Shown: in pieces, positions 2,511 to 24,045 of the stretch
Layout: every line of letters begins with the position of its first letter
Numbering within the stretch: the first letter of the stretch is position 1
DNA from: Escherichia coli
GTDB lineage: Bacteria > Pseudomonadota > Gammaproteobacteria > Enterobacterales > Enterobacteriaceae
DNA: 64,000 nucleotides
Strand: one strand, 5' to 3'
Assembly: GCF_051903065.1 (NCBI RefSeq)
Contig: NZ_CP178438.1
Notes under the pieces: generated by a model
Told to the model about the DNA's origin: nothing
What the model saw: only the letters and a program-made list of their open reading frames with translations
The model's database searches: none
Program-made: the position numbers and the translations under genes

Positions 2511-4178
2511 ATGCTGAGAACTTTTACAGGACAAAATTATAAAGCATACGAAAGCTTTAAGTTAGATTTAAAGCCATTGACAATATTGTTAGGTGCAAAT
2601 AGTTGTGGAAAAAGTGCACTAATTAACTCTTTGTTGATGTTTTCTCAGACAGTTGATTCAATGTCATTGTCTGACTCTGCTCTACGGCTGAATGGACCTA
2701 AAGTGGGAATGGGGGAAGCATTAAATATTATAAAAAATAAAGATGACTCCAAAACACTTAACTTTAGCTTTGATTTTTCTGATAATAGCGTAGTTAAAAA
2801 TGGCATTGATACTCTGAGAAGAGAAACTTTAGAATCATTTGCTATGATTATGCGATTCACTATACAGACAGTAAAAAATAATGATGAGTTGGTCGCGAAG
2901 GCCAATAATTTGATAAATGAATCTTTGAATGCTATTGTTAATTTTGATGAGTTTGAGGAGGCTAAATTAAATATTATTGCTGATAAATTGTGCCAGTTGA
3001 TTATGCTTTTTAGAGATGCTGGCAATAATATTATGTTTAGCCGGGCTACCTCAGAAAACTTACGCAGATTTATATATGAATGCCCATTGAAGAGAATCAA
3101 AGATTGCCTAACTAAAGTTGTTTCTATTTCAGGAAATAAATTGTCTGCATCTAAAATAAGTTATGACTTCAGATATGATAAAAATAAAGGTGTGGTAAAG
3201 GTTTCGAGATTTGTTCTTCTAAATAAGAATGATGAAAGAATAGTTGAACTGTTACCCAAAAAGAATAATGTCGTTGTATTGTCGGATGTTATCCCTCAAG
3301 AAGTATTTAGAGGATGTAAGTCTGATATCTTAGAAATCATGAATCCTTATTCTTTGGGGCTATTCCCTGTCAATGAAGGACGTGGTTTTTATGTTTTTTT
3401 TGGAAATTCCTACAACCCTGTTGTTAACTTTTTGTCACATGTTGTTTCTCTGGGAGTATTAATGCTTTCAAAAATGTTTGATGGCGAAAATGTTAATCAT
3501 GTCAGCCCGTTGAGGGCATTTCCTCAGCGTTATTATTTATTAGATAAAACAGTCAATCATGCTCAGTTAAATTCTGCTGATGGCTCTGAGTTGGCGGAGA
3601 TTCTGAAGAAAAATACAAAAATAACAGAAAACATAAACCTTCTTCTCGCTGAATTTAACTTAGCGGTTGATATAGTTAGAGTTAATGACATAATTCATAA
3701 GATAGTTATAAACCAAGATGCTGTTAATTTAGAATTGACAGATGTAGGGTTTGGAATATCACAAGTGTTGCCTGTCTTGGTTCAAGCTTATTTGTCACCA
3801 AAGGGCTCGATTACAATAATAGAACAACCAGAAATACATTTGCATCCTAAAATGCAGGCATGGTTAACTGACGCATTAATTAAAATATCTATGCAAGAAA
3901 AGAAAATTTTTATTATTGAAACACATAGTGATGCATTAGTTAGACGGATTAGATTAAGAATTGTTGATGAATCAAGCGAACTTACTGAGGACCATGTGGC
4001 AATCTATCATCTTGAGCGAGATGAAGAGGGAACATCAACCTTACTAAATAGAGTGGCTGTGAATTCTGATGGAGATATCACATGGCCAAATGAGTTTATG
4101 GATGTTGAGATTCAGGATACAATTAGAATACAGGAATTAAAGATACAAAAAATAATGAACTCAAAGGGAGTTCATTGA
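2511..4178 (+). CDS. ABC/OLD-type (AAA_15/AAA_21-like) ATPase, cargo gene 1 of A-Q hotspot; candidate defence ATPase (AriA/AbiLi/PtuA-like)
   Basis: 555 aa; Walker A GANSCGKS near N-terminus; Walker B/D-loop-like IIEQPEIHLHP and H-loop-like ETHSD near C-terminus with ~400-aa insertion between; very AT-rich; strong RBS AGGAG upstream. Confidence 0.75.
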   Translation: MLRTFTGQNYKAYESFKLDLKPLTILLGANSCGKSALINSLLMFSQTVDSMSLSDSALRLNGPKVGMGEALNIIKNKDDSKTLNFSFDFSDNSVVKNGIDTLRRETLESFAMIMRFTIQTVKNNDELVAKANNLINESLNAIVNFDEFEEAKLNIIADKLCQLIMLFRDAGNNIMFSRATSENLRRFIYECPLKRIKDCLTKVVSISGNKLSASKISYDFRYDKNKGVVKVSRFVLLNKNDERIVELLPKKNNVVVLSDVIPQEVFRGCKSDILEIMNPYSLGLFPVNEGRGFYVFFGNSYNPVVNFLSHVVSLGVLMLSKMFDGENVNHVSPLRAFPQRYYLLDKTVNHAQLNSADGSELAEILKKNTKITENINLLLAEFNLAVDIVRVNDIIHKIVINQDAVNLELTDVGFGISQVLPVLVQAYLSPKGSITIIEQPEIHLHPKMQAWLTDALIKISMQEKKIFIIETHSDALVRRIRLRIVDESSELTEDHVAIYHLERDEEGTSTLLNRVAVNSDGDITWPNEFMDVEIQDTIRIQELKIQKIMNSKGVH

Positions 4179-4179
4179 T

Positions 4180-5181
4180 ATGCTTTGTGCTGTTTGTTTG
4201 TGTCCTGAATTTGTTGCTGCTAATATTTCTGATGTTAAAGTTTTTAGCGGTTTTTTTATTGAAACCATTGTTAATGGTGAAAATGAGTTGATTCTTGATG
4301 CTGATGGAAAAATTCGCTTAGGTTATTTAAAGTCTTGCGGAAACAACAAGGATTCTTTTTTGTTTTTTAAGAAGTGGGAGTCTGAGTTATCTAAAGCTCC
4401 TTCAGGCAAGATATTGCGTACACCAGTGCCGAATAGTTCTGAGGATATTAAGGATATAGTTGTTTGTGCAGTTGCTAATGCAGCCACTACTTTTGATAAG
4501 CATATCGTAGTGTTAGATAATAATAGTTACTCTGGATATATTGATGAATTAATCAGGCAAAGGATTAATTTGTTAAATCTTAATAGTATAAGCTTAATAT
4601 CAAAGGATGGTCGAGTGCAGCGTCCTTTGAATTTTATAAAGTTTGATAGTGATTTATCTTGGGTGCTTCAAAGATTGGGGCGTCGCTCTGCTAAAGGATA
4701 TGGTGAAGATGATTTTAATGATTTTATACGGGATATGTTATTAGCTAAGAATTATGAGGTAAAAGATCAAACTAGAGAGGGAGAGTCTCAATCTGGTAAA
4801 AGTGCGGGTGAATTAGATCTTGTTATTGAAGATAAAGGAAATCTATTTGCTATAATAGAAGCATTGATTTTAAAATCTCTAGATCAAGCTAACATATTAA
4901 AGCATTATTCAAAGCTAATTAGTAACTATAATCCTATTAATGTTAAACGCTTGTTTTTAATTGCTTATTATACTGGTGCAAAATTTGATGCTTGGTGTGA
5001 GAGATACATTGATTATCTAAAAGAGATTACTCCGGTAGATATTGGTGTAGAATCTCATGAGATAGTTGGGATTAAAGAAGTGGAGACTCCATATATAGGT
5101 TTGAGAAAAATTGAACATCATTTTAGATATGCGGGAGAACATTATTTTTGTGTTCATTATGCAGTCAAGATGGCTCGGTGA
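4180..5181 (+). CDS. Partner protein of hotspot ATPase, putative nuclease effector (PD-(D/E)xK-like or TOPRIM/DUF4435-like)
   Basis: 333 aa; ATG 1 nt after upstream TGA (translational coupling); motifs GELDLVIEDKG (D-x3-E-x-K) and IETIV..LDADG (E...DxD); AT-rich. Confidence 0.6.
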   Translation: MLCAVCLCPEFVAANISDVKVFSGFFIETIVNGENELILDADGKIRLGYLKSCGNNKDSFLFFKKWESELSKAPSGKILRTPVPNSSEDIKDIVVCAVANAATTFDKHIVVLDNNSYSGYIDELIRQRINLLNLNSISLISKDGRVQRPLNFIKFDSDLSWVLQRLGRRSAKGYGEDDFNDFIRDMLLAKNYEVKDQTREGESQSGKSAGELDLVIEDKGNLFAIIEALILKSLDQANILKHYSKLISNYNPINVKRLFLIAYYTGAKFDAWCERYIDYLKEITPVDIGVESHEIVGIKEVETPYIGLRKIEHHFRYAGEHYFCVHYAVKMAR

Positions 5182-5193
5182 TGTTTAATATGA

Positions 5194-5218
5194 ATGCACC
5201 TATAGGGTGCATCATTTT
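5194..5218 (+). terminator. Putative terminator of the hotspot operon
   Basis: Hairpin ATGCACC-TATA-GGGTGCAT followed by CATTTTG directly after the stop at 5181. Confidence 0.45.
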
Positions 5219-5318
5219 GCATGTTTAAATACGTTCTCTATGTATGTGCGCTAGGCTTGACTGGCGCGCTTGTACTATGTTTATGCAACTGCATTAAAAC
5301 CGACCCATGAAGCGGGCG

Positions 5319-5337
5319 GGCGAGGCGGGGAAAGCAC
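5319..5337. other. cos: P2-type cos site (19-nt cohesive end sequence)
   Basis: GGCGAGGCGGGGAAAGCAC matches the P2 cohesive-end sequence as I recall it; lies between the A-side cargo and portal gene Q, where P2 cos sits. Confidence 0.6.
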
Positions 5338-5478
5338 TGCGCGCTGGCGGTGGTGCTGATTTTATTTTTTCAGCGTCTGAGCGCGTCGTGATGGCGTTTA
5401 GTCGGCCTGCCGGGGCGTTGGTGTGTCTGCGGGGTGTTTTGTACAGTGGCGAACGTGTGAGGGCGTGATGACGGGGTG

Positions 5479-5501
5479 TAAAAAAGCCGCCCGCAGGCGG
5501 C
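5479..5501 (-). terminator. Rho-independent terminator downstream of Q (minus strand)
   Basis: Minus-strand hairpin GCCGCC-TGCG-GGCGGC followed by a T-run, immediately 3' of the Q stop. Confidence 0.5.
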
Positions 5502-5506
5502 GATGT

Positions 5507-6541
5507 TCAGCCGTTGTCAGTGTCCAGTGAGTAGTTTTTAAATCGGATGACCTCCTGACCGAGCCAGCCGTTTATCTCGCGGATCCTGTCCTGTAACGGG
5601 ATAAGCTCATTGCGGACAAAGACCTTTGCTACTTTCTCAATATCGCCCAGCGACCCGACGTTCTCCGGCTTGCCGCCCATCAACTGAAAGGGGATGCGGT
5701 GCGCGTCCAGCAGGTCTGCGGCACTGGCTTTTTTGATATTAAAAAAATCGTCCTTCGTCGCCACTTCACTGAGCGGGATAATTTTAATGCCGTCGGCTTT
5801 TCCCTGCGGGGCATAGAGAAACAGGTTTTTAAAGTTGTTGCGGCCTTTCGACTTCACCATGTTTTCGCGAAGCATTTCGATATCGTTGCGATCCTGCACG
5901 GCATCCGTGACGTACATGATGTATCCGGCATGTGCGCCGTTTTCGTAATACTTGCGGCGGAACAGAGTGGCCGACTCATTCAGCCAGGCAGAGTTAAGGG
6001 CGCTGAGATATTCCGGCAGGCCGTACAGCTCCTGATTAATATCCGGCTCCAGCAGGTGAAACACGGAGCCGGGCGCGAAAGGTGTCGGCTCGTTGAAGGA
6101 CGGCACCCACCAGTAAACATCCTCTTCCACGCCACGGCGGGTATATTTTGCCGGTGAGGTTTCCAGTCTGATGACCTTACCGGTGGTGCTGTAACGCTTT
6201 TCCAGAAACGCATTGCCGAACACCAGAAAATCCAGCACAAAGCGGCTGAAATCCTGCTGGGAAAGCCACGGGTGCGGAATAAACGTTGAAGCCAGAATAT
6301 TACGTTTGACGTAAATCGGTGAGCTGTGATGTACGGCAGCACGCAGGCTTTTTGCCAGACCGGTAAAGCTGACCGGTGGCTCATACCATCTGCCGTTACT
6401 GATGCACTCGACGTAATCCAGAATGTCACGGCGGTCGAGTACCGGCACCGGTTCACCAAAGGTGAATGCCTCCATTTTCGGGGCGCTGGCGGTCATTTTT
6501 TTTGCCGCTAGTCGCGGTGTTTTCCCTTTTTTCTTGCTCAT
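5507..6541 (-). CDS. Q: Portal protein gpQ
   Basis: 344 aa, size and sequence character of P2 Q; overlaps start of P; conserved position next to cos. Confidence 0.9.
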   Translation of the reverse strand: MSKKKGKTPRLAAKKMTASAPKMEAFTFGEPVPVLDRRDILDYVECISNGRWYEPPVSFTGLAKSLRAAVHHSSPIYVKRNILASTFIPHPWLSQQDFSRFVLDFLVFGNAFLEKRYSTTGKVIRLETSPAKYTRRGVEEDVYWWVPSFNEPTPFAPGSVFHLLEPDINQELYGLPEYLSALNSAWLNESATLFRRKYYENGAHAGYIMYVTDAVQDRNDIEMLRENMVKSKGRNNFKNLFLYAPQGKADGIKIIPLSEVATKDDFFNIKKASAADLLDAHRIPFQLMGGKPENVGSLGDIEKVAKVFVRNELIPLQDRIREINGWLGQEVIRFKNYSLDTDNG

Positions 6542-8313
6542 CAGTAAAACTCCAGAATGGTGGATGTCAGCGGAGTGCTGATACCCGCGGTGAGTGGCTC
6601 ATTTAACAGGGCGTGCATGGTCGCCCAGGCGAGGTCGGCGTGGCTGGCTTCCTCGCTGCGGCTGGCCTCATAGGTGGCACTGCGTCCGCTGCTGGTCATG
6701 GTCTTGCGGATAGCCATAAACGAGCTGGTGATGTCGGTGGCGCTGACGTCGTATTCCAGACAGCCACGGCGGATGACGTCTTTTGCCTTGAGCACCATTG
6801 CGGTTTTCATTTCCGGCGTGTAGCGGATGTCGCGCGCGGCGGGATAGAACGAGCGCACGAGCTGGAACACGCCGACACCGAGGCCGGTGGCATCAATACC
6901 GATGTATTCGACGTTGTATTTTTCGGTGAGTTTGCGGATGGATTCAGCCTGGGTGGCAAAGTCCATGCCTTTCCACTGGTGACGCTCAAGTATTCTGAAT
7001 TTGCCACCGGCCACCACCGGCGGTGCCAGCACCACGCATCCGGCACTGTCGCCACGGTGTGACGGGTCGTAACCAATCCAGACCGGGCGGGAGCCGAACG
7101 GATTCGCGGCAAACGGCGTATAGTCTTCCCATTCTTCCAGCGTGTCGACCATGCAGCGTTGCAGCTCCTCGAACGGGAATACCGACGCCTTGTCGTCAAC
7201 AAATTCACACATGAACAGGTTTTTAAAATCGTCGGCGCTGTTTTCGCGTTTAAGCTGCTCAATGTCGAACAGCGTGCAGCCACCTTTCAGGGCGTCCTCA
7301 ATGGTGACAATCTGCCGCCACTGGCCGTCCGCACAGAGAAGCCCACCGGCAAGGGCGTTATGACTGACGTCGATTTCCACGCGTTCGGCGGCGCTGGCGC
7401 GTCCCCGGTTGAACAGTTCACCCGACCAGAACGGATAGGCGTCGTGCGCCAGCGTGGACGGGGTGGAGAAATAGGTCGAGCGCAGGTGACTCTGTGAGGC
7501 CATACCTGATGCCACCTTACGCAGTACCTGAAAATTCGGGATCCAGAAAATCTCATCGACGTACAGGTCGCCGTTATGGCTCTGCGCGGTGTTGGAGTTG
7601 GTGCCGAGAAAAATCAGTTTTGCGCCGTTATTGCCCAGGACAATCGGGTCACCGGTCAGGTCAACGTCAACCAGCCGGGCAAAGGCGATGATGTATTCGC
7701 GGAACACATACGCCTGCGTTTTACTGGCCGACAGAAAAATCTGGTTATGACCGGTTTTCAGGGCGCGCAGCAGCGCCTCGCGGGAAAAATAAAACGTCGC
7801 GCCAATCTGGCGGGATTTCAGGATATCGCGGATGCGGTGCTCAAGCCCGGCGCGATACCAGTGCAACTGATAGTCGAAAGACTGCTCAAAGAAAATCTGC
7901 TCCAGCTTTTCGATGGCCTCGTCACTGAAAAAATTCTTTTTCGGTTTGCGACGCCCGCCTTTGTTGCGGTTAGCGACGTTCGGATTAAGGTCTGCCTCGT
8001 TGCCGGTCTGACTGTAGCGGTTGACCCGCGCCAGCCGTTCAATCTGGCGTCCCAGCAGGTCAATTTCCTTGAAGTCACCGCCGGTTTTCTGCGGTTTGAT
8101 GATGAGCTGGGTCAGCCGCGCTTCCAGACTCATTTCGACACGGCTGATGGGGGCAACGCTGTCCCAGCCGTCGCGCTGTTTCCAGCTCTGCACCGTCGGG
8201 CGTTTCATCTGCAACATGGCGGCAATCTGCGGCACGGAAAACCCCTGCCAGTACAGCAGCGCCGCCTGACGACGCGGGTCGTGTAAAAGAGTGGTGTCTG
8301 TGGTGATGGTCAT
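6541..8313 (-). CDS. P: Terminase large (ATPase) subunit gpP
   Basis: ORF 6541..8343; start taken at MTITTDTTLL (ATG at 8311-8313 on minus strand) as in P2 gpP; divergent from O. Confidence 0.88.
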   Translation of the reverse strand: MTITTDTTLLHDPRRQAALLYWQGFSVPQIAAMLQMKRPTVQSWKQRDGWDSVAPISRVEMSLEARLTQLIIKPQKTGGDFKEIDLLGRQIERLARVNRYSQTGNEADLNPNVANRNKGGRRKPKKNFFSDEAIEKLEQIFFEQSFDYQLHWYRAGLEHRIRDILKSRQIGATFYFSREALLRALKTGHNQIFLSASKTQAYVFREYIIAFARLVDVDLTGDPIVLGNNGAKLIFLGTNSNTAQSHNGDLYVDEIFWIPNFQVLRKVASGMASQSHLRSTYFSTPSTLAHDAYPFWSGELFNRGRASAAERVEIDVSHNALAGGLLCADGQWRQIVTIEDALKGGCTLFDIEQLKRENSADDFKNLFMCEFVDDKASVFPFEELQRCMVDTLEEWEDYTPFAANPFGSRPVWIGYDPSHRGDSAGCVVLAPPVVAGGKFRILERHQWKGMDFATQAESIRKLTEKYNVEYIGIDATGLGVGVFQLVRSFYPAARDIRYTPEMKTAMVLKAKDVIRRGCLEYDVSATDITSSFMAIRKTMTSSGRSATYEASRSEEASHADLAWATMHALLNEPLTAGISTPLTSTILEFY

Positions 8314-20358: not shown

Positions 20359-20457
20359 GTTGTATGAGCTCTGGTGTGAGCTTACATATCTATGGCACAG
20401 AGTAAAGCCTAATCTGACAGTCCGTTCTGTGCCAGTAGCGGACGTTTGAATAAATTA

Positions 20458-20526: not shown

Positions 20527-21480
20527 ATGGATATACATGCAAAAAGAGTTGGCAGTCCACTTTATAAAATTATTATGTACTTAAATAAGTATGAAGAAGA
20601 TACACTGGAAGACATAAAACTTCAGTTTCTTTTAAAAAATTTAAAAACTCATTTCAAGAAACTGTTTTATATGATTACTTACATTAATAAAATTCAAAAA
20701 GATGCTGAGTTCATCAGAAAACATGATGCAACATCAATTGTCAGCATTAGTGCTATTGAGTATTGCTATTATAAAATCAGCACGATATGGGATATTGCAT
20801 ATCAGATAGCTGATAAATTAATTTTCCCAACTAAAAAAAATGGCAATAAATATGATTACCTTGAAAATCATTTCCAGCAATATGCACAGGAATTTCCAGA
20901 TTTGAATTTAAAATGGTATAAGGACTTTAATAAAATAAGAAATAAGATAGTTCATGGAGGGATAACAGTAAATCCTTATTATGTCAACGATGATAATATT
21001 AAAACAAAGATTTGTTTCCAAGCATATGACTCTGATCTAAACGATCTGATTCAACCTCATATGATGTATTCAAATAGATTCAATAACAATATTAATTTTG
21101 CTGATTACTATTTTACCTTTTATACTCATCTTCTCTATTCATATCTTTTTGATTTTTTTGATTTTGTACTTCTTGAGCTAAACAAAGATAAATCACATGA
21201 TTTAGACAATCTTATTCTTGATGATATACCGCACAAATTGTTTGGTGCTCATCATGAAACATGGTTGTTATCTGATGTTGATCAATTTATGAAAATTACA
21301 AGAGAAATGATTTCCCTACAAATAGCTGATGGTTGTTTAAATAAAATTGAGAAAATACCCTCAAGTGATATTGAACATTTTTTTAACAACTTTCCATTTT
21401 GTCTTATGACAAAGGTTAGCTCCGGAGATTGGGTATTGGTTGAGGATAAAGCGGCTGAAACAAAGTCATCGGACACTTAA
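20527..21480 (+). CDS. HEPN-motif (Rx4H) protein, Abi-like candidate, cargo in the G-FI (Z/fun) hotspot
   Basis: 317 aa; very AT-rich, Lys/Asn/Tyr/Phe-rich; motif RNKIVHGG (R-x4-H); own promoter-like elements. Confidence 0.55.
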   Translation: MDIHAKRVGSPLYKIIMYLNKYEEDTLEDIKLQFLLKNLKTHFKKLFYMITYINKIQKDAEFIRKHDATSIVSISAIEYCYYKISTIWDIAYQIADKLIFPTKKNGNKYDYLENHFQQYAQEFPDLNLKWYKDFNKIRNKIVHGGITVNPYYVNDDNIKTKICFQAYDSDLNDLIQPHMMYSNRFNNNINFADYYFTFYTHLLYSYLFDFFDFVLLELNKDKSHDLDNLILDDIPHKLFGAHHETWLLSDVDQFMKITREMISLQIADGCLNKIEKIPSSDIEHFFNNFPFCLMTKVSSGDWVLVEDKAAETKSSDT

Positions 21481-21774
21481 ATTTTTTTTGTGCCAAAGTC
21501 TACTCCTCGCTCGTCACAGGCTTTGGCATTCGTTTCAACAACCAAGTGATAGCATATATTGTGACCTGCACCCCGTTGATTCATACATCCTCGATGTAAG
21601 CAATCCCTTGAGAACGTCCACTCCTCGCTCTTAGCAGATCACACGGTTCTTCAAACGATCCGCTTCGTACCAGAAACGAACTTTTATCTCAAATTTGAAC
21701 CTTTTAGTGGATGACGACGTTTGTGTCTTCAAGTAGTCTTAAAAGCATGCGGATAGTGCATAGGAAAAGCAGAA

Positions 21775-22611
21775 GTGATCGATGACCCACTACCAGAAAA
21801 CTGGCAAGACCTCCAGACAGGGGTCCAACGTATATTCCGTAATGTTGGCTTGTTTGCAGAAGTCGAGGTCGATTTAGAAACCCCGCGTGGCTCGGTGAAT
21901 GTGGATGTTCTTGCTACAGATGTTAGGAGCGTGGACAAAATCAGATACATTGTGGAATGCAAAAACTGGGGTAGTTCTATACCACAGACGGTGGTCCATT
22001 CGTTCACCACGGTAATGCATGAAACCGGGGCTAATATTGGATTTATTATTTCAAAGCACGGGCTTCAGCAGGGTGCTAAACAGTACACTCAAAACACCAA
22101 TATTATTGGGATGACATACCTTGAGTTCCAAAAAAGGTATTTTGAGGCTTGGTGGAATAGATACTTTTGTCCACGTATCGGTGATGCTGCAGACGAACCG
22201 CTTCAGTACGTCGAACCAATCAACTCTAAACGAGATCGCGAATACGCCAAGCTAAGCCTTCAAGCACAAGAGAAGTTCGATCAGTTAAGGCAAGAGAAAG
22301 GTGTATCAGTAGTGGTTCTCTCTATGCTCAATTACAAGTTTATGTCGAAAGCATTAAACACTGGTAACTTGCTGGAAGTCCCAAATAATCTGGATGATTT
22401 TAAGAACAGAGTTCTCTCCCGAATATGTCCTCACATTGAATGGCATTGTGATACGTACAGAGAGCTGCTAGAGCTCATCTTGCAATACTTATCAGTCACA
22501 AAAGCAGAGTTTGATGCAATATTTGGTCGGGCCATCTTTGAACCGCCAAGTAGTATCACGGGGGTTACGGCTGAAGGTCCCCCTTTAGACGATGGTATTT
22601 ATCATCATTAG
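21775..22611 (+). CDS. PD-(D/E)xK restriction-endonuclease-like (Mrr_cat-like) protein, cargo in the G-FI hotspot
   Basis: 278 aa, GTG start; N-terminal VNVDVLATD ... YIVECKNW (D ... E-x-K nuclease signature). Confidence 0.55.
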   Translation: MIDDPLPENWQDLQTGVQRIFRNVGLFAEVEVDLETPRGSVNVDVLATDVRSVDKIRYIVECKNWGSSIPQTVVHSFTTVMHETGANIGFIISKHGLQQGAKQYTQNTNIIGMTYLEFQKRYFEAWWNRYFCPRIGDAADEPLQYVEPINSKRDREYAKLSLQAQEKFDQLRQEKGVSVVVLSMLNYKFMSKALNTGNLLEVPNNLDDFKNRVLSRICPHIEWHCDTYRELLELILQYLSVTKAEFDAIFGRAIFEPPSSITGVTAEGPPLDDGIYHH

Positions 22612-22732
22612 TTTCATACATAAACCATGCTCCCGCATGTCCGCATTTCGCTCAAAGCAGACTGTCAGATTTGATAGCGTTTGGGCTATGTAAACTGTCA
22701 GTCGGAAAATGAGTGTGTGCAAATCAGGACAG

Positions 22733-22760
22733 GCGGGCGAATTGCCCGCATTTTCTTTAT
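22733..22760 (+). terminator. Rho-independent terminator after the G-FI cargo genes
   Basis: GCGGGC-GAATT-GCCCGC followed by TTTTCTTTAT. Confidence 0.6.
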
Positions 22761-22762
22761 CT

Positions 22763-22772
22763 GTTGTTTCAT
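22763..22772 (+). promoter_or_regulatory. Late-promoter-associated motif TGTTGTTTCA upstream of FI (P_F region)
   Basis: ~92 bp upstream of FI start; third copy of the TGTTGT(G/T)TCA motif. Confidence 0.45.
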
Positions 22773-22854
22773 CCACTGACCAGCCAGGTCAAATGGCGTC
22801 TCATGCACTGCCCAACAGAAAATAGTTGCACCCATTAACCACGGAGTTAAACGG

Positions 22855-24045
22855 ATGAGCGACTATCATCATGGCGTGCAGGTGCTGGAGATTAACGACG
22901 GCACCCGCGTCATTTCCACCGTATCCACTGCCATTGTCGGCATGGTCTGCACGGCCAGCGATGCGGATGCGGAAATCTTCCCCCTCAATAAACCGGTGCT
23001 GATTACCAATGTGCAGAGCGCAATTGCAAAGGCCGGTAAAAAAGGCACGCTGGCGGCATCGTTGCAGGCCATCGCCGACCAGTCAAAACCGGTCACAGTT
23101 GTCGTGCGCGTGGAAGACGGCACCGGCGATGACGAAGAAACGAAACTCGCGCAGACCGTTTCCAATATCATCGGCACCACCGACGAAAACGGTCAGTACA
23201 CCGGACTGAAAGCCCTGCTGGCGGCGGAGTCGGTAACCGGTGTTAAACCGCGTATTCTCGGCGTGCCGGGACTGGACACCAAAGAGGTGGCTGTTGCACT
23301 GGCATCAGTCTGTCAGAAGCTGCGCGCTTTCGGGTATATCAGCGCATGGGGCTGTAAAACCATTTCCGAGGTGAAAGCCTACCGTCAGAATTTCAGCCAG
23401 CGTGAGCTGATGGTCATCTGGCCGGATTTCCTCGCATGGGATACGGTCAGCAGCACCACCGCCACCGCGTATGCCACCGCCCGTGCGCTGGGTCTGCGCG
23501 CTAAAATCGACCAGGAGCAGGGCTGGCATAAAACGCTGTCCAATGTCGGGGTAAACGGTGTTACCGGCATCAGTGCTTCTGTATTCTGGGATTTGCAGGA
23601 GTCCGGCACCGATGCTGACCTGCTTAACGAGTCAGGCGTCACTACGCTGATTCGTCGCGACGGTTTCCGATTCTGGGGTAACCGTACCTGCTCTGATGAC
23701 CCGCTGTTCCTCTTTGAAAACTACACCCGCACCGCGCAGGTGCTGGCCGACACGATGGCTGAGGCGCACATGTGGGCGGTGGACAAGCCCATCACCGCAA
23801 CGCTGATTCGCGACATCGTTGACGGCATCAATGCCAAATTCCGTGAGCTGAAAACAAACGGCTATATCGTGGATGCGACCTGCTGGTTCAGCGAAGAATC
23901 CAACGATGCGGAAACCCTCAAGGCCGGAAAACTGTATATCGACTACGACTATACACCGGTGCCTCCTCTCGAAAACCTGACCCTGCGCCAGCGTATTACC
24001 GATAAATACCTGGCAAATCTGGTCACCTCGGTTAACAGCAATTAA
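22855..24045 (+). CDS. FI: Tail sheath protein FI
   Basis: 396 aa, P2 FI-like. Confidence 0.9.
   Translation: MSDYHHGVQVLEINDGTRVISTVSTAIVGMVCTASDADAEIFPLNKPVLITNVQSAIAKAGKKGTLAASLQAIADQSKPVTVVVRVEDGTGDDEETKLAQTVSNIIGTTDENGQYTGLKALLAAESVTGVKPRILGVPGLDTKEVAVALASVCQKLRAFGYISAWGCKTISEVKAYRQNFSQRELMVIWPDFLAWDTVSSTTATAYATARALGLRAKIDQEQGWHKTLSNVGVNGVTGISASVFWDLQESGTDADLLNESGVTTLIRRDGFRFWGNRTCSDDPLFLFENYTRTAQVLADTMAEAHMWAVDKPITATLIRDIVDGINAKFRELKTNGYIVDATCWFSEESNDAETLKAGKLYIDYDYTPVPPLENLTLRQRITDKYLANLVTSVNSN

Follow-up and report, generated by a model that had tools for sequence, protein, structure and literature searches.

What does a nuclease gene do in the cargo site of a P2-like prophage, and does it act alone? 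The question is raised by a 64,000-nt stretch of Escherichia coli DNA (RefSeq assembly GCF_051903065.1, contig NZ_CP178438.1; hereafter the window), in which a gene for a 278-residue protein lies between prophage genes G and FI. Following up a preliminary description made from the nucleotide sequence, we find that the protein is a member of the Mrr_cat/PD-(D/E)xK superfamily, in an uncharacterised subfamily with a novel accessory domain, and that the gene is a mobile cassette in its own right. That it has an anti-phage role of some kind appears moderately probable.

A Mrr-type nuclease fused to a family-specific helical domain

The open reading frame (ORF) proposed in the preliminary description is annotated in RefSeq, at the same coordinates in the identical E. 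coli locus, as a 'restriction endonuclease' (WP_032259605.1) flanked by a tail fibre assembly gene and a tail sheath gene of a P2-like prophage. The GTG start is supported by three features: the N-terminus MIDDP(L/Y)P hardly varies among 40 homologues, the Proteus and Raoultella genes carry an ATG where the GTG stands, and an AGGA is retained upstream (Table 1). The ORF is not a chance one, because the protein has 360 full-length homologues and the ratio of non-synonymous to synonymous substitution rates (dN/dS) between the gene and four homologues is 0.06–0.19, i.e. it is under purifying selection. The whole protein is acidic, with an isoelectric point (pI) of 5.3.

The N-terminal 111 residues form an intact Mrr-type PD-(D/E)xK catalytic domain with D44, E61 and K63. 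The sole Pfam match of the protein is to Mrr_cat (PF04471), over residues 9–111 and model positions 5–104 of 115 (E 7.4e-11, 42.6 bits). The three catalytic residues never vary among 40 close homologues, and in 44 distant members (23–49% identity) each is conserved to at least 90%; the two motifs on which the preliminary description had based its Mrr-like call, VNVDVLATD and YIVECKNW, are residues 41–49 and 58–65. An AlphaFold2 model built from 40 sequences was confident (predicted local distance difference test score 91, predicted template modelling score 0.88), with core helices at residues 10–23 and 71–84 and core strands at 27–36, 39–48, 57–63 and 88–93. With Foldseek, only the N-terminal part matched the PDB: the matches were AF1548 (1Y88), VC1899 and the nuclease domains of MspJI, AspBHI, Can2, Card1 and Cdn1. 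A family profile recovered AF1548 from the PDB by sequence too, over the core region only; a PDB search with the single protein sequence returned nothing relevant. AF1548 is the closest solved relative, being alike in the core by sequence and fold, with D...ExK in the expected strands, but it came from structural genomics without an assigned function, and the helical bundle of the window protein has no counterpart in it. NCBIfam gave no match to the nuclease, and PHROGs gave weak matches only, to families of unknown function. Membership of the superfamily, for which the preliminary description had named profile and structure searches as a check, is borne out by the Mrr_cat profile, the catalytic residues and the core fold.

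The rest of the protein is the uncharacterised C-terminal domain that had been noticed beforehand, although it is 167 residues long (112–278) rather than ~180. Its first long helix, residues 112–146 (YLEFQxRYFEAWWxRYFCP), is strongly conserved and the distal part evolves faster: mean pairwise identity in the family is 80% for the nuclease, 84% for this helix and 47–54% for the remainder. The domain is acidic to neutral (pI 5.4–6.2), and it has no match in a PDB profile search, in Pfam or in PADLOC. Against AFDB50, each of the top 20 matches (all those below E 2) is annotated as a restriction endonuclease or Mrr-domain protein; the full-length matches are 244–292 aa and come from Gamma- and Betaproteobacteria, Nocardioides and Desulfofundulus. 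A hidden Markov model (HMM) of the C-terminal domain, searched against 1.84 billion cluster representatives, found 95 clusters, of 236–288 aa, in which the domain begins near residue 110–140; the exceptions were shorter entries and three longer proteins. The 167 residues are a helical bundle that is essentially exclusive to fusions with this nuclease. Because the AFDB50 and HMM matches share one architecture, the proteins constitute a distinct Mrr subfamily defined by the helical domain.

These data also bear on the idea that the gene no longer has a function, being the orphaned or decaying endonuclease of a restriction-modification system that has been lost. The annotation says only 'restriction endonuclease', there is no methyltransferase nearby, and fragments of the gene exist on some plasmids (H38–H40). 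However, hundreds of clusters from different phyla have full-length members (245–290 aa), the catalytic residues do not vary, selection is purifying, and no context has a cognate DNA methyltransferase. We regard decay as very improbable. The plasmid fragments, on near-identical ~60 kb plasmids of Klebsiella and E. coli, are unannotated, cover residues 204–277 only at 54% identity and are probably remnants of a family member.

Autonomy and distribution of the gene

A 317-aa gene lies upstream on the same strand, and the preliminary description had offered two options: a partnership with this HEPN gene, or a separate single-gene candidate. The spacing is 294 nt, one fewer than first counted. In a two-gene system, one protein would sense and the other execute, and the two genes do share a strand and one hotspot; the pair recurs in seven E. 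coli genomes and three IMG/VR contigs; and the upstream protein has an Rx4H motif with a sub-threshold HEPN_Apea match around it (E 0.18). It has no PADLOC or NCBIfam match. We nevertheless find a two-gene system hard to credit. The GC content jumps from ~26% to ~44% at a sharp boundary near 21480, and a stable hairpin stands between the genes. In one E. coli genome, the sequence of 21562–22662 is present at 96% identity in a lambdoid prophage, beside the replication gene P, and without the 317-aa gene. In five of the seven E. coli genomes, the upstream gene is annotated as two ORFs whilst the nuclease gene is intact; in the one of these five that was aligned, the cause is an A8-to-A7 frameshift (the A8 tract is at ~20833–20840).

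To place the gene more widely, ~60 loci were taken from assemblies, one-genome-per-species contigs and IMG/VR, their ORFs were called, and three neighbours per side were clustered. Each recurring neighbour cluster was confined to a single context group and none bridged groups. The 317-aa gene occurs beside the nuclease in the P2 hotspot lineage only; in all other contexts the nuclease is alone or has unrelated genes upstream. The gap to the upstream gene varied from 49 to 450 nt across loci, and the downstream gene was often convergent. Given the GC jump, the intervening hairpin, the solo lambdoid cassette, the split upstream gene in five of seven genomes and the lack of shared neighbours, the nuclease gene is autonomous and not a partner of the upstream gene, so that of the two options first offered the single-gene candidate is the better reading.

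Hidden homology among the upstream neighbours of different contexts, or between them and the 317-aa gene, was also tested, and none was found. A PDC-S31 neighbour considered as a HEPN family, which would have revived the idea of a HEPN partner, proved to be DUF2971. In the lambdoid locus (L003), the cargo adjoining the lone cassette (3641–7879) encodes a 'HEPN domain-containing protein' and a SEC-C-domain protein; in the sole comparison made, this HEPN protein showed no relationship to the product of the 258-aa gene that precedes the nuclease gene in Enterobacteriaceae (L004).

The position between G and FI, which the preliminary description had called a hotspot, is the known Z/fun cargo hotspot between the tail-fibre and tail-sheath genes of P2-like phages, a documented defence locus (PMC9519451; 10.1101/2024.10.15.618418). 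Elsewhere the family was found in the P/nin region of lambdoid prophages; in the Q-to-lysis slot of Proteus lambdoid prophages; in an e14/CPS-53-like E. coli prophage, at the integrase end, where seven genomes have an allele of 74% identity; after the tail fibre assembly gene of a Buttiauxella IncFIB phage-plasmid; and in integrase+AlpA islands. Temperate elements of at least six kinds carry it in their accessory slots, and the evidence that the cassette hops between temperate elements is clear. The gene is rare: members are present in 15 of 5426 complete E. coli genomes, in 7 of the 1036 E. coli genomes with a P2 backbone, in 23 genomes of the one-per-species set (within the reach of the peptide patterns searched) and on 19 IMG/VR contigs. 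The hosts include Enterobacterales, Pseudomonas, Vibrio and Psychrobacter, and are scattered over Gamma- and Betaproteobacteria and beyond. A gene this rare and widely spread, and mobile between so many kinds of element, can serve as a tracer of cargo exchange among phage hotspots. The Vibrio and Amphritea copies were considered as integron cassettes and rejected as such, no attC-like repeat families being found.

The neighbours are mutually unrelated, but often they are defence genes or candidates: Abi_2, AbiV, TIR, HsdM and a GajA-like fragment, together with the PADLOC candidates PDC-S67, PDC-S31 (DUF2971, in three contexts), PDC-S15 and PDC-S64. In the P2 Z/fun hotspot, in lambdoid moron sites and in integrase islands, the gene thus has the location typical of defence systems, beside known defence genes. 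As a separate observation, a DUF2971/PDC-S31 protein stands beside or close to the nuclease in four otherwise unrelated loci (L022 4586–5551, L033 5229–5948, L038 5208–5948 and L064 9165–9959), from Pseudomonas fluorescens, Psychrobacter species and the Buttiauxella plasmid; BLAST could not cluster these DUF2971 proteins because they have diverged too far. Their proximity may be a coincidence of two defence-island residents, or a loose association.

Mode of action and a possible role in defence

No DNA methyltransferase is conserved beside the nuclease in the ~60 loci. None of the P2, lambdoid, Enterobacter, Raoultella and Pseudomonas contexts has an adjacent methyltransferase, and a neighbour in Kangiella matches the general S-adenosylmethionine-methyltransferase Pfams Methyltransf_11/23/25, not a DNA-methyltransferase family. 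A Type II restriction-modification system was rejected because there is no adjacent cognate DNA methyltransferase. Since there is no methyltransferase, and yet the host and its own prophage must be spared, either the target is absent from the host or a switch is needed.

E. coli Mrr and enzymes of the MspJI/AspBHI type are likewise solitary nucleases of the same catalytic superfamily without a cognate methyltransferase. They have an N-terminal DNA reader (a winged helix or an SRA-like domain) and a C-terminal nuclease; in the window protein the nuclease comes first, and the searches reveal no reader domain. Were it a Type IV-like modification-dependent enzyme, the helical domain would bind a foreign base mark, such as hydroxymethyl- or glucosyl-cytosine or some other hypermodified base, and cleavage by the Mrr core would follow, with host and prophage DNA spared because the mark is absent from them. 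Several observations accord with this: the catalytic family is named after the Type IV enzyme Mrr; no context has a conserved DNA methyltransferase alongside; the modification-dependent MspJI and AspBHI are among the structural neighbours; and the gene is tolerated across hosts of differing native methylation (Enterobacterales, Pseudomonas, Vibrio, Psychrobacter). Moreover, the immunity conferred by most of the DNase-type systems in one study was direct rather than abortive (PMC9519451). On the other hand, the Mrr_N winged helix is absent, Mrr_cat starting at residue 9; Pfam recognises no reader domain; the helical domain matches no known modified-base reader and is acidic to neutral; and the Type IV models of PADLOC (mREase_IV) do not match. 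On balance we consider a modification-dependent enzyme unlikely, though a serious contender.

Mrr nucleases joined to other kinds of domain provide a second set of precedents. The beta-propeller system is a single defensive protein with an N-terminal Mrr nuclease (PMC9519451, Vassallo et al. 2022), from a set of systems that includes P2 fun hotspot cargo, and Epona is a single defence protein in which Mrr_cat is joined to a two-transmembrane (2-TM) holin (10.1101/2024.07.02.601686). Like the window protein, both are fusions of a Mrr nuclease to a second domain and are found on mobile elements; the second domain is a beta-propeller or a membrane domain in these two, and a soluble five-helix bundle here. 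Shedu (SduA, DUF4263) is also a single-protein PD-(D/E)xK defence nuclease, one whose appended domain regulates it (10.1101/2023.08.10.552793), but with a different domain order. Membership of Shedu itself, suggested as a check in the preliminary description, was not borne out: neither Pfam nor PADLOC gave a DUF4263 or SduA match. The PADLOC v2 models, which date from no later than 2023 and which we take to include the Vassallo systems, gave no full-length match to the nuclease. The sole PADLOC match was to PDC-S02 (E 3e-5), which has the Mrr catalytic core in common. This was a partial alignment, of residues 43–107 (65 residues) to positions 236–301 of 346; because the match falls there, the nuclease of PDC-S02 is C-terminal and the remainder is unrelated. 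The literature searched neither mentions the accessions nor gives an account of a Mrr_cat single-gene family with this architecture.

We tentatively propose that this autonomous nuclease cassette of one gene, which spreads horizontally and rides in the Z/fun hotspot as non-essential cargo (a 'moron'), encodes a self-gated protein that protects the lysogen against other phages. The protein would be a self-contained sensor and effector. The invariant aromatic helix 112–146 is predicted to pack on the nuclease and probably oligomerises it, whilst the faster-evolving distal helices and the acidic tail would keep the enzyme off host DNA. An infection cue, perhaps a phage protein or a phage DNA structure, would release the nuclease, which would then cut DNA and stop phage replication, with or without cell death. 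Self-gating is favoured because the C-terminal domain is unlike known modified-base readers, is not basic and evolves fast in its distal part, and because there are precedents among Mrr fusions. Within an anti-phage role, we consider this mechanism slightly more likely than classical Type IV restriction.

Several points weigh against this proposal. A gating role for the helical domain is purely hypothetical, and the domain could be a mere dimerisation scaffold or an unrecognised DNA-binding module. The literature searched contains no experimental report of defence for any family member. Guilt by association is a weak argument for a gene that rides in variable regions. A tblastn search of 50,697 sequenced phage genomes found no homologue. 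Lastly, a scan of 21481–21774 for a consensus sigma-70 promoter, from which the gene might be expressed in the lysogen, found nothing.

A PD-(D/E)xK nuclease in a phage defence hotspot is a familiar kind of gene, and this variant of it would not surprise a specialist. If the protein does protect against phages, it would be a compact, single-gene addition to the catalogue of defence systems and, as a well-understood effector with an entirely uncharacterised partner domain, a useful system in which to study how host DNA is protected from a small nuclease. If it does not, what is left is an ordinary orphan nuclease annotation.

Flanks of the cassette and the P2 backbone

Short flanks on both sides move with the coding sequence (Table 1). 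The 5' leader folds no better than shuffled sequences (z +1.4), and an Rfam scan of 21400–22900 found no family. On the 3' side, the hairpin that travels with the gene is a weak one of 5 bp (CATGC-TCCC-GCATG, 22626–22639). The preliminary description had instead given the gene a strong hairpin as its terminator, placed immediately before the FI late-promoter motif. Such a hairpin exists (22733–22749, GCGGGCGAATTGCCCGC, a GC stem of 6–7 bp and then a T-run; -14.7 kcal/mol, z -2.6), but it is not the gene's own, because it starts 121 nt past the nuclease stop codon and is within P2 backbone sequence; homology to P2-like (Peduovirus) phages and to the 1036 E. coli genomes starts at 22637. Its order with respect to the promoter motif was also reversed: TGT-N12-ACA, which occurs once upstream of FI, directly precedes the hairpin.

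The whole cargo of the hotspot, i.e. both genes between G and FI (2195 nt), is enclosed by an imperfect 33-nt inverted repeat, of which the outer 12 nt (AATCTGACAGTC) are perfect. In Peduovirus P2_2H1, the same arms (L065 1627–1645 and 2517–2535) surround a different cargo gene, so the repeat belongs to the backbone; cargo may have been inserted in the loop of a hairpin that is now split. A piece of the right arm and its junction with P2, TGTCCGCnnTTyGyTCAwA (22637–22671 in the window), recurs ~28 nt past the nuclease stop codon in L013, L005, L037, L048–L050 and L064, i.e. in Proteus lambdoid prophages, the Buttiauxella phage-plasmid and other non-P2 elements. The recurrence suggests either that the cassette took part of the P2 hotspot boundary along when it moved or that the junction sequence serves cargo exchange.

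Because the gene carries its flanks and P2 junction sequence, a selfish or homing-like element is conceivable. More generally, the nuclease might serve the mobile element rather than defence, by acting in recombination or cargo exchange, by degrading host or competitor-plasmid DNA, or through an addiction or other selfish function. The short conserved flanks that travel along, with a ~25–35 bp junction in common with the P2 hotspot boundary, fit such a role, as does the orientation with the P2 late genes, which would allow lytic read-through; nor is any defence phenotype on record. However, the gene is absent from the 50,697 phage genomes and from most P2-like prophages (only 7 of 1036 carry it), and so has no core phage role; moreover, it has no antitoxin-like partner ORF and its neighbours are predominantly defence genes or candidates. 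We hold a non-defence function to be rather improbable.

Taking up the proposed self-gated defence nuclease again, a bolder version of it would make the helical bundle a new infection sensor that responds to a phage-encoded trigger and switches on the Mrr nuclease, with the conserved flanks and the inverted repeat as marks of a cassette hopping between cargo sites. This is speculative and on present evidence doubtful. If the sensor part were true, a protein of ~275 aa would be among the smallest self-contained sensor-effector immune proteins.

Table 1. Positions of the nuclease gene, its parts and the surrounding features in the window
Feature	Position	Strand	Remarks
Coding sequence, Mrr-type nuclease with family-specific helical C-terminal domain	21775..22611	+	278 aa; GTG start
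Shine-Dalgarno-like sequence AGGAAAAG	21762..21769	+	9 nt 5' of GTG; AGGA kept in six contexts
PD-(D/E)xK (Mrr_cat, PF04471) catalytic domain	21775..22107	+	residues 1-111; alpha-beta-beta-beta-alpha-beta core; Pfam, AlphaFold2, Foldseek, profile search
Codon of catalytic D44 (in VNVDV)	21904..21906	+	conservation in homologue alignments
Codons of E61-C62-K63 (ExK motif)	21955..21963	+	conservation in homologue alignments
Five-helix bundle and acidic tail	22108..22608	+	residues 112-278
5' non-coding region moving with the nuclease gene	21562..21774	+	common to lambdoid prophage L003; last ~95 nt also in L004
3' flank kept with the gene in unrelated elements	22612..22662	+	holds small hairpin
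Upstream neighbour	20527..21480	+	317 aa; 26% GC; Rx4H motif (R138..H143); judged independent cargo
Hairpin with 12-bp stem, between the two genes	21490..21528	+	directly after the upstream gene's stop; -15.6 kcal/mol, z -4.4
TGT-N12-ACA dyad (P2 late-promoter type)	22714..22731	+	P2 backbone; immediately 5' of the strong hairpin
Intrinsic-terminator-like hairpin and T-run	22733..22759	+	P2 backbone
Left arm of imperfect 33-nt inverted repeat	20411..20443	.	around whole hotspot cargo
Right arm of 33-nt inverted repeat	22639..22671	.	overlaps the travelling 3' flank of the nuclease gene

Two minor observations concern the window as well. A 25-nt direct repeat with 80% identity and the core ACTCCTCGCTC has one copy at 21495–21519, within the loop of the hairpin that follows the upstream gene, and the other at 21613–21637, within the 5' flank that moves with the nuclease; an older cassette junction may have left it behind. 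The same prophage also has a second hotspot, between gene A and the portal gene, with a two-gene cargo: a 333-aa protein (4180–5181) has no PADLOC match, and the gene before it (2511–4178) encodes a 555-aa ABC-type ATPase that matches the PADLOC models NsnB, HEC-03B, PDC-M55A and AriA (best E 2e-51).

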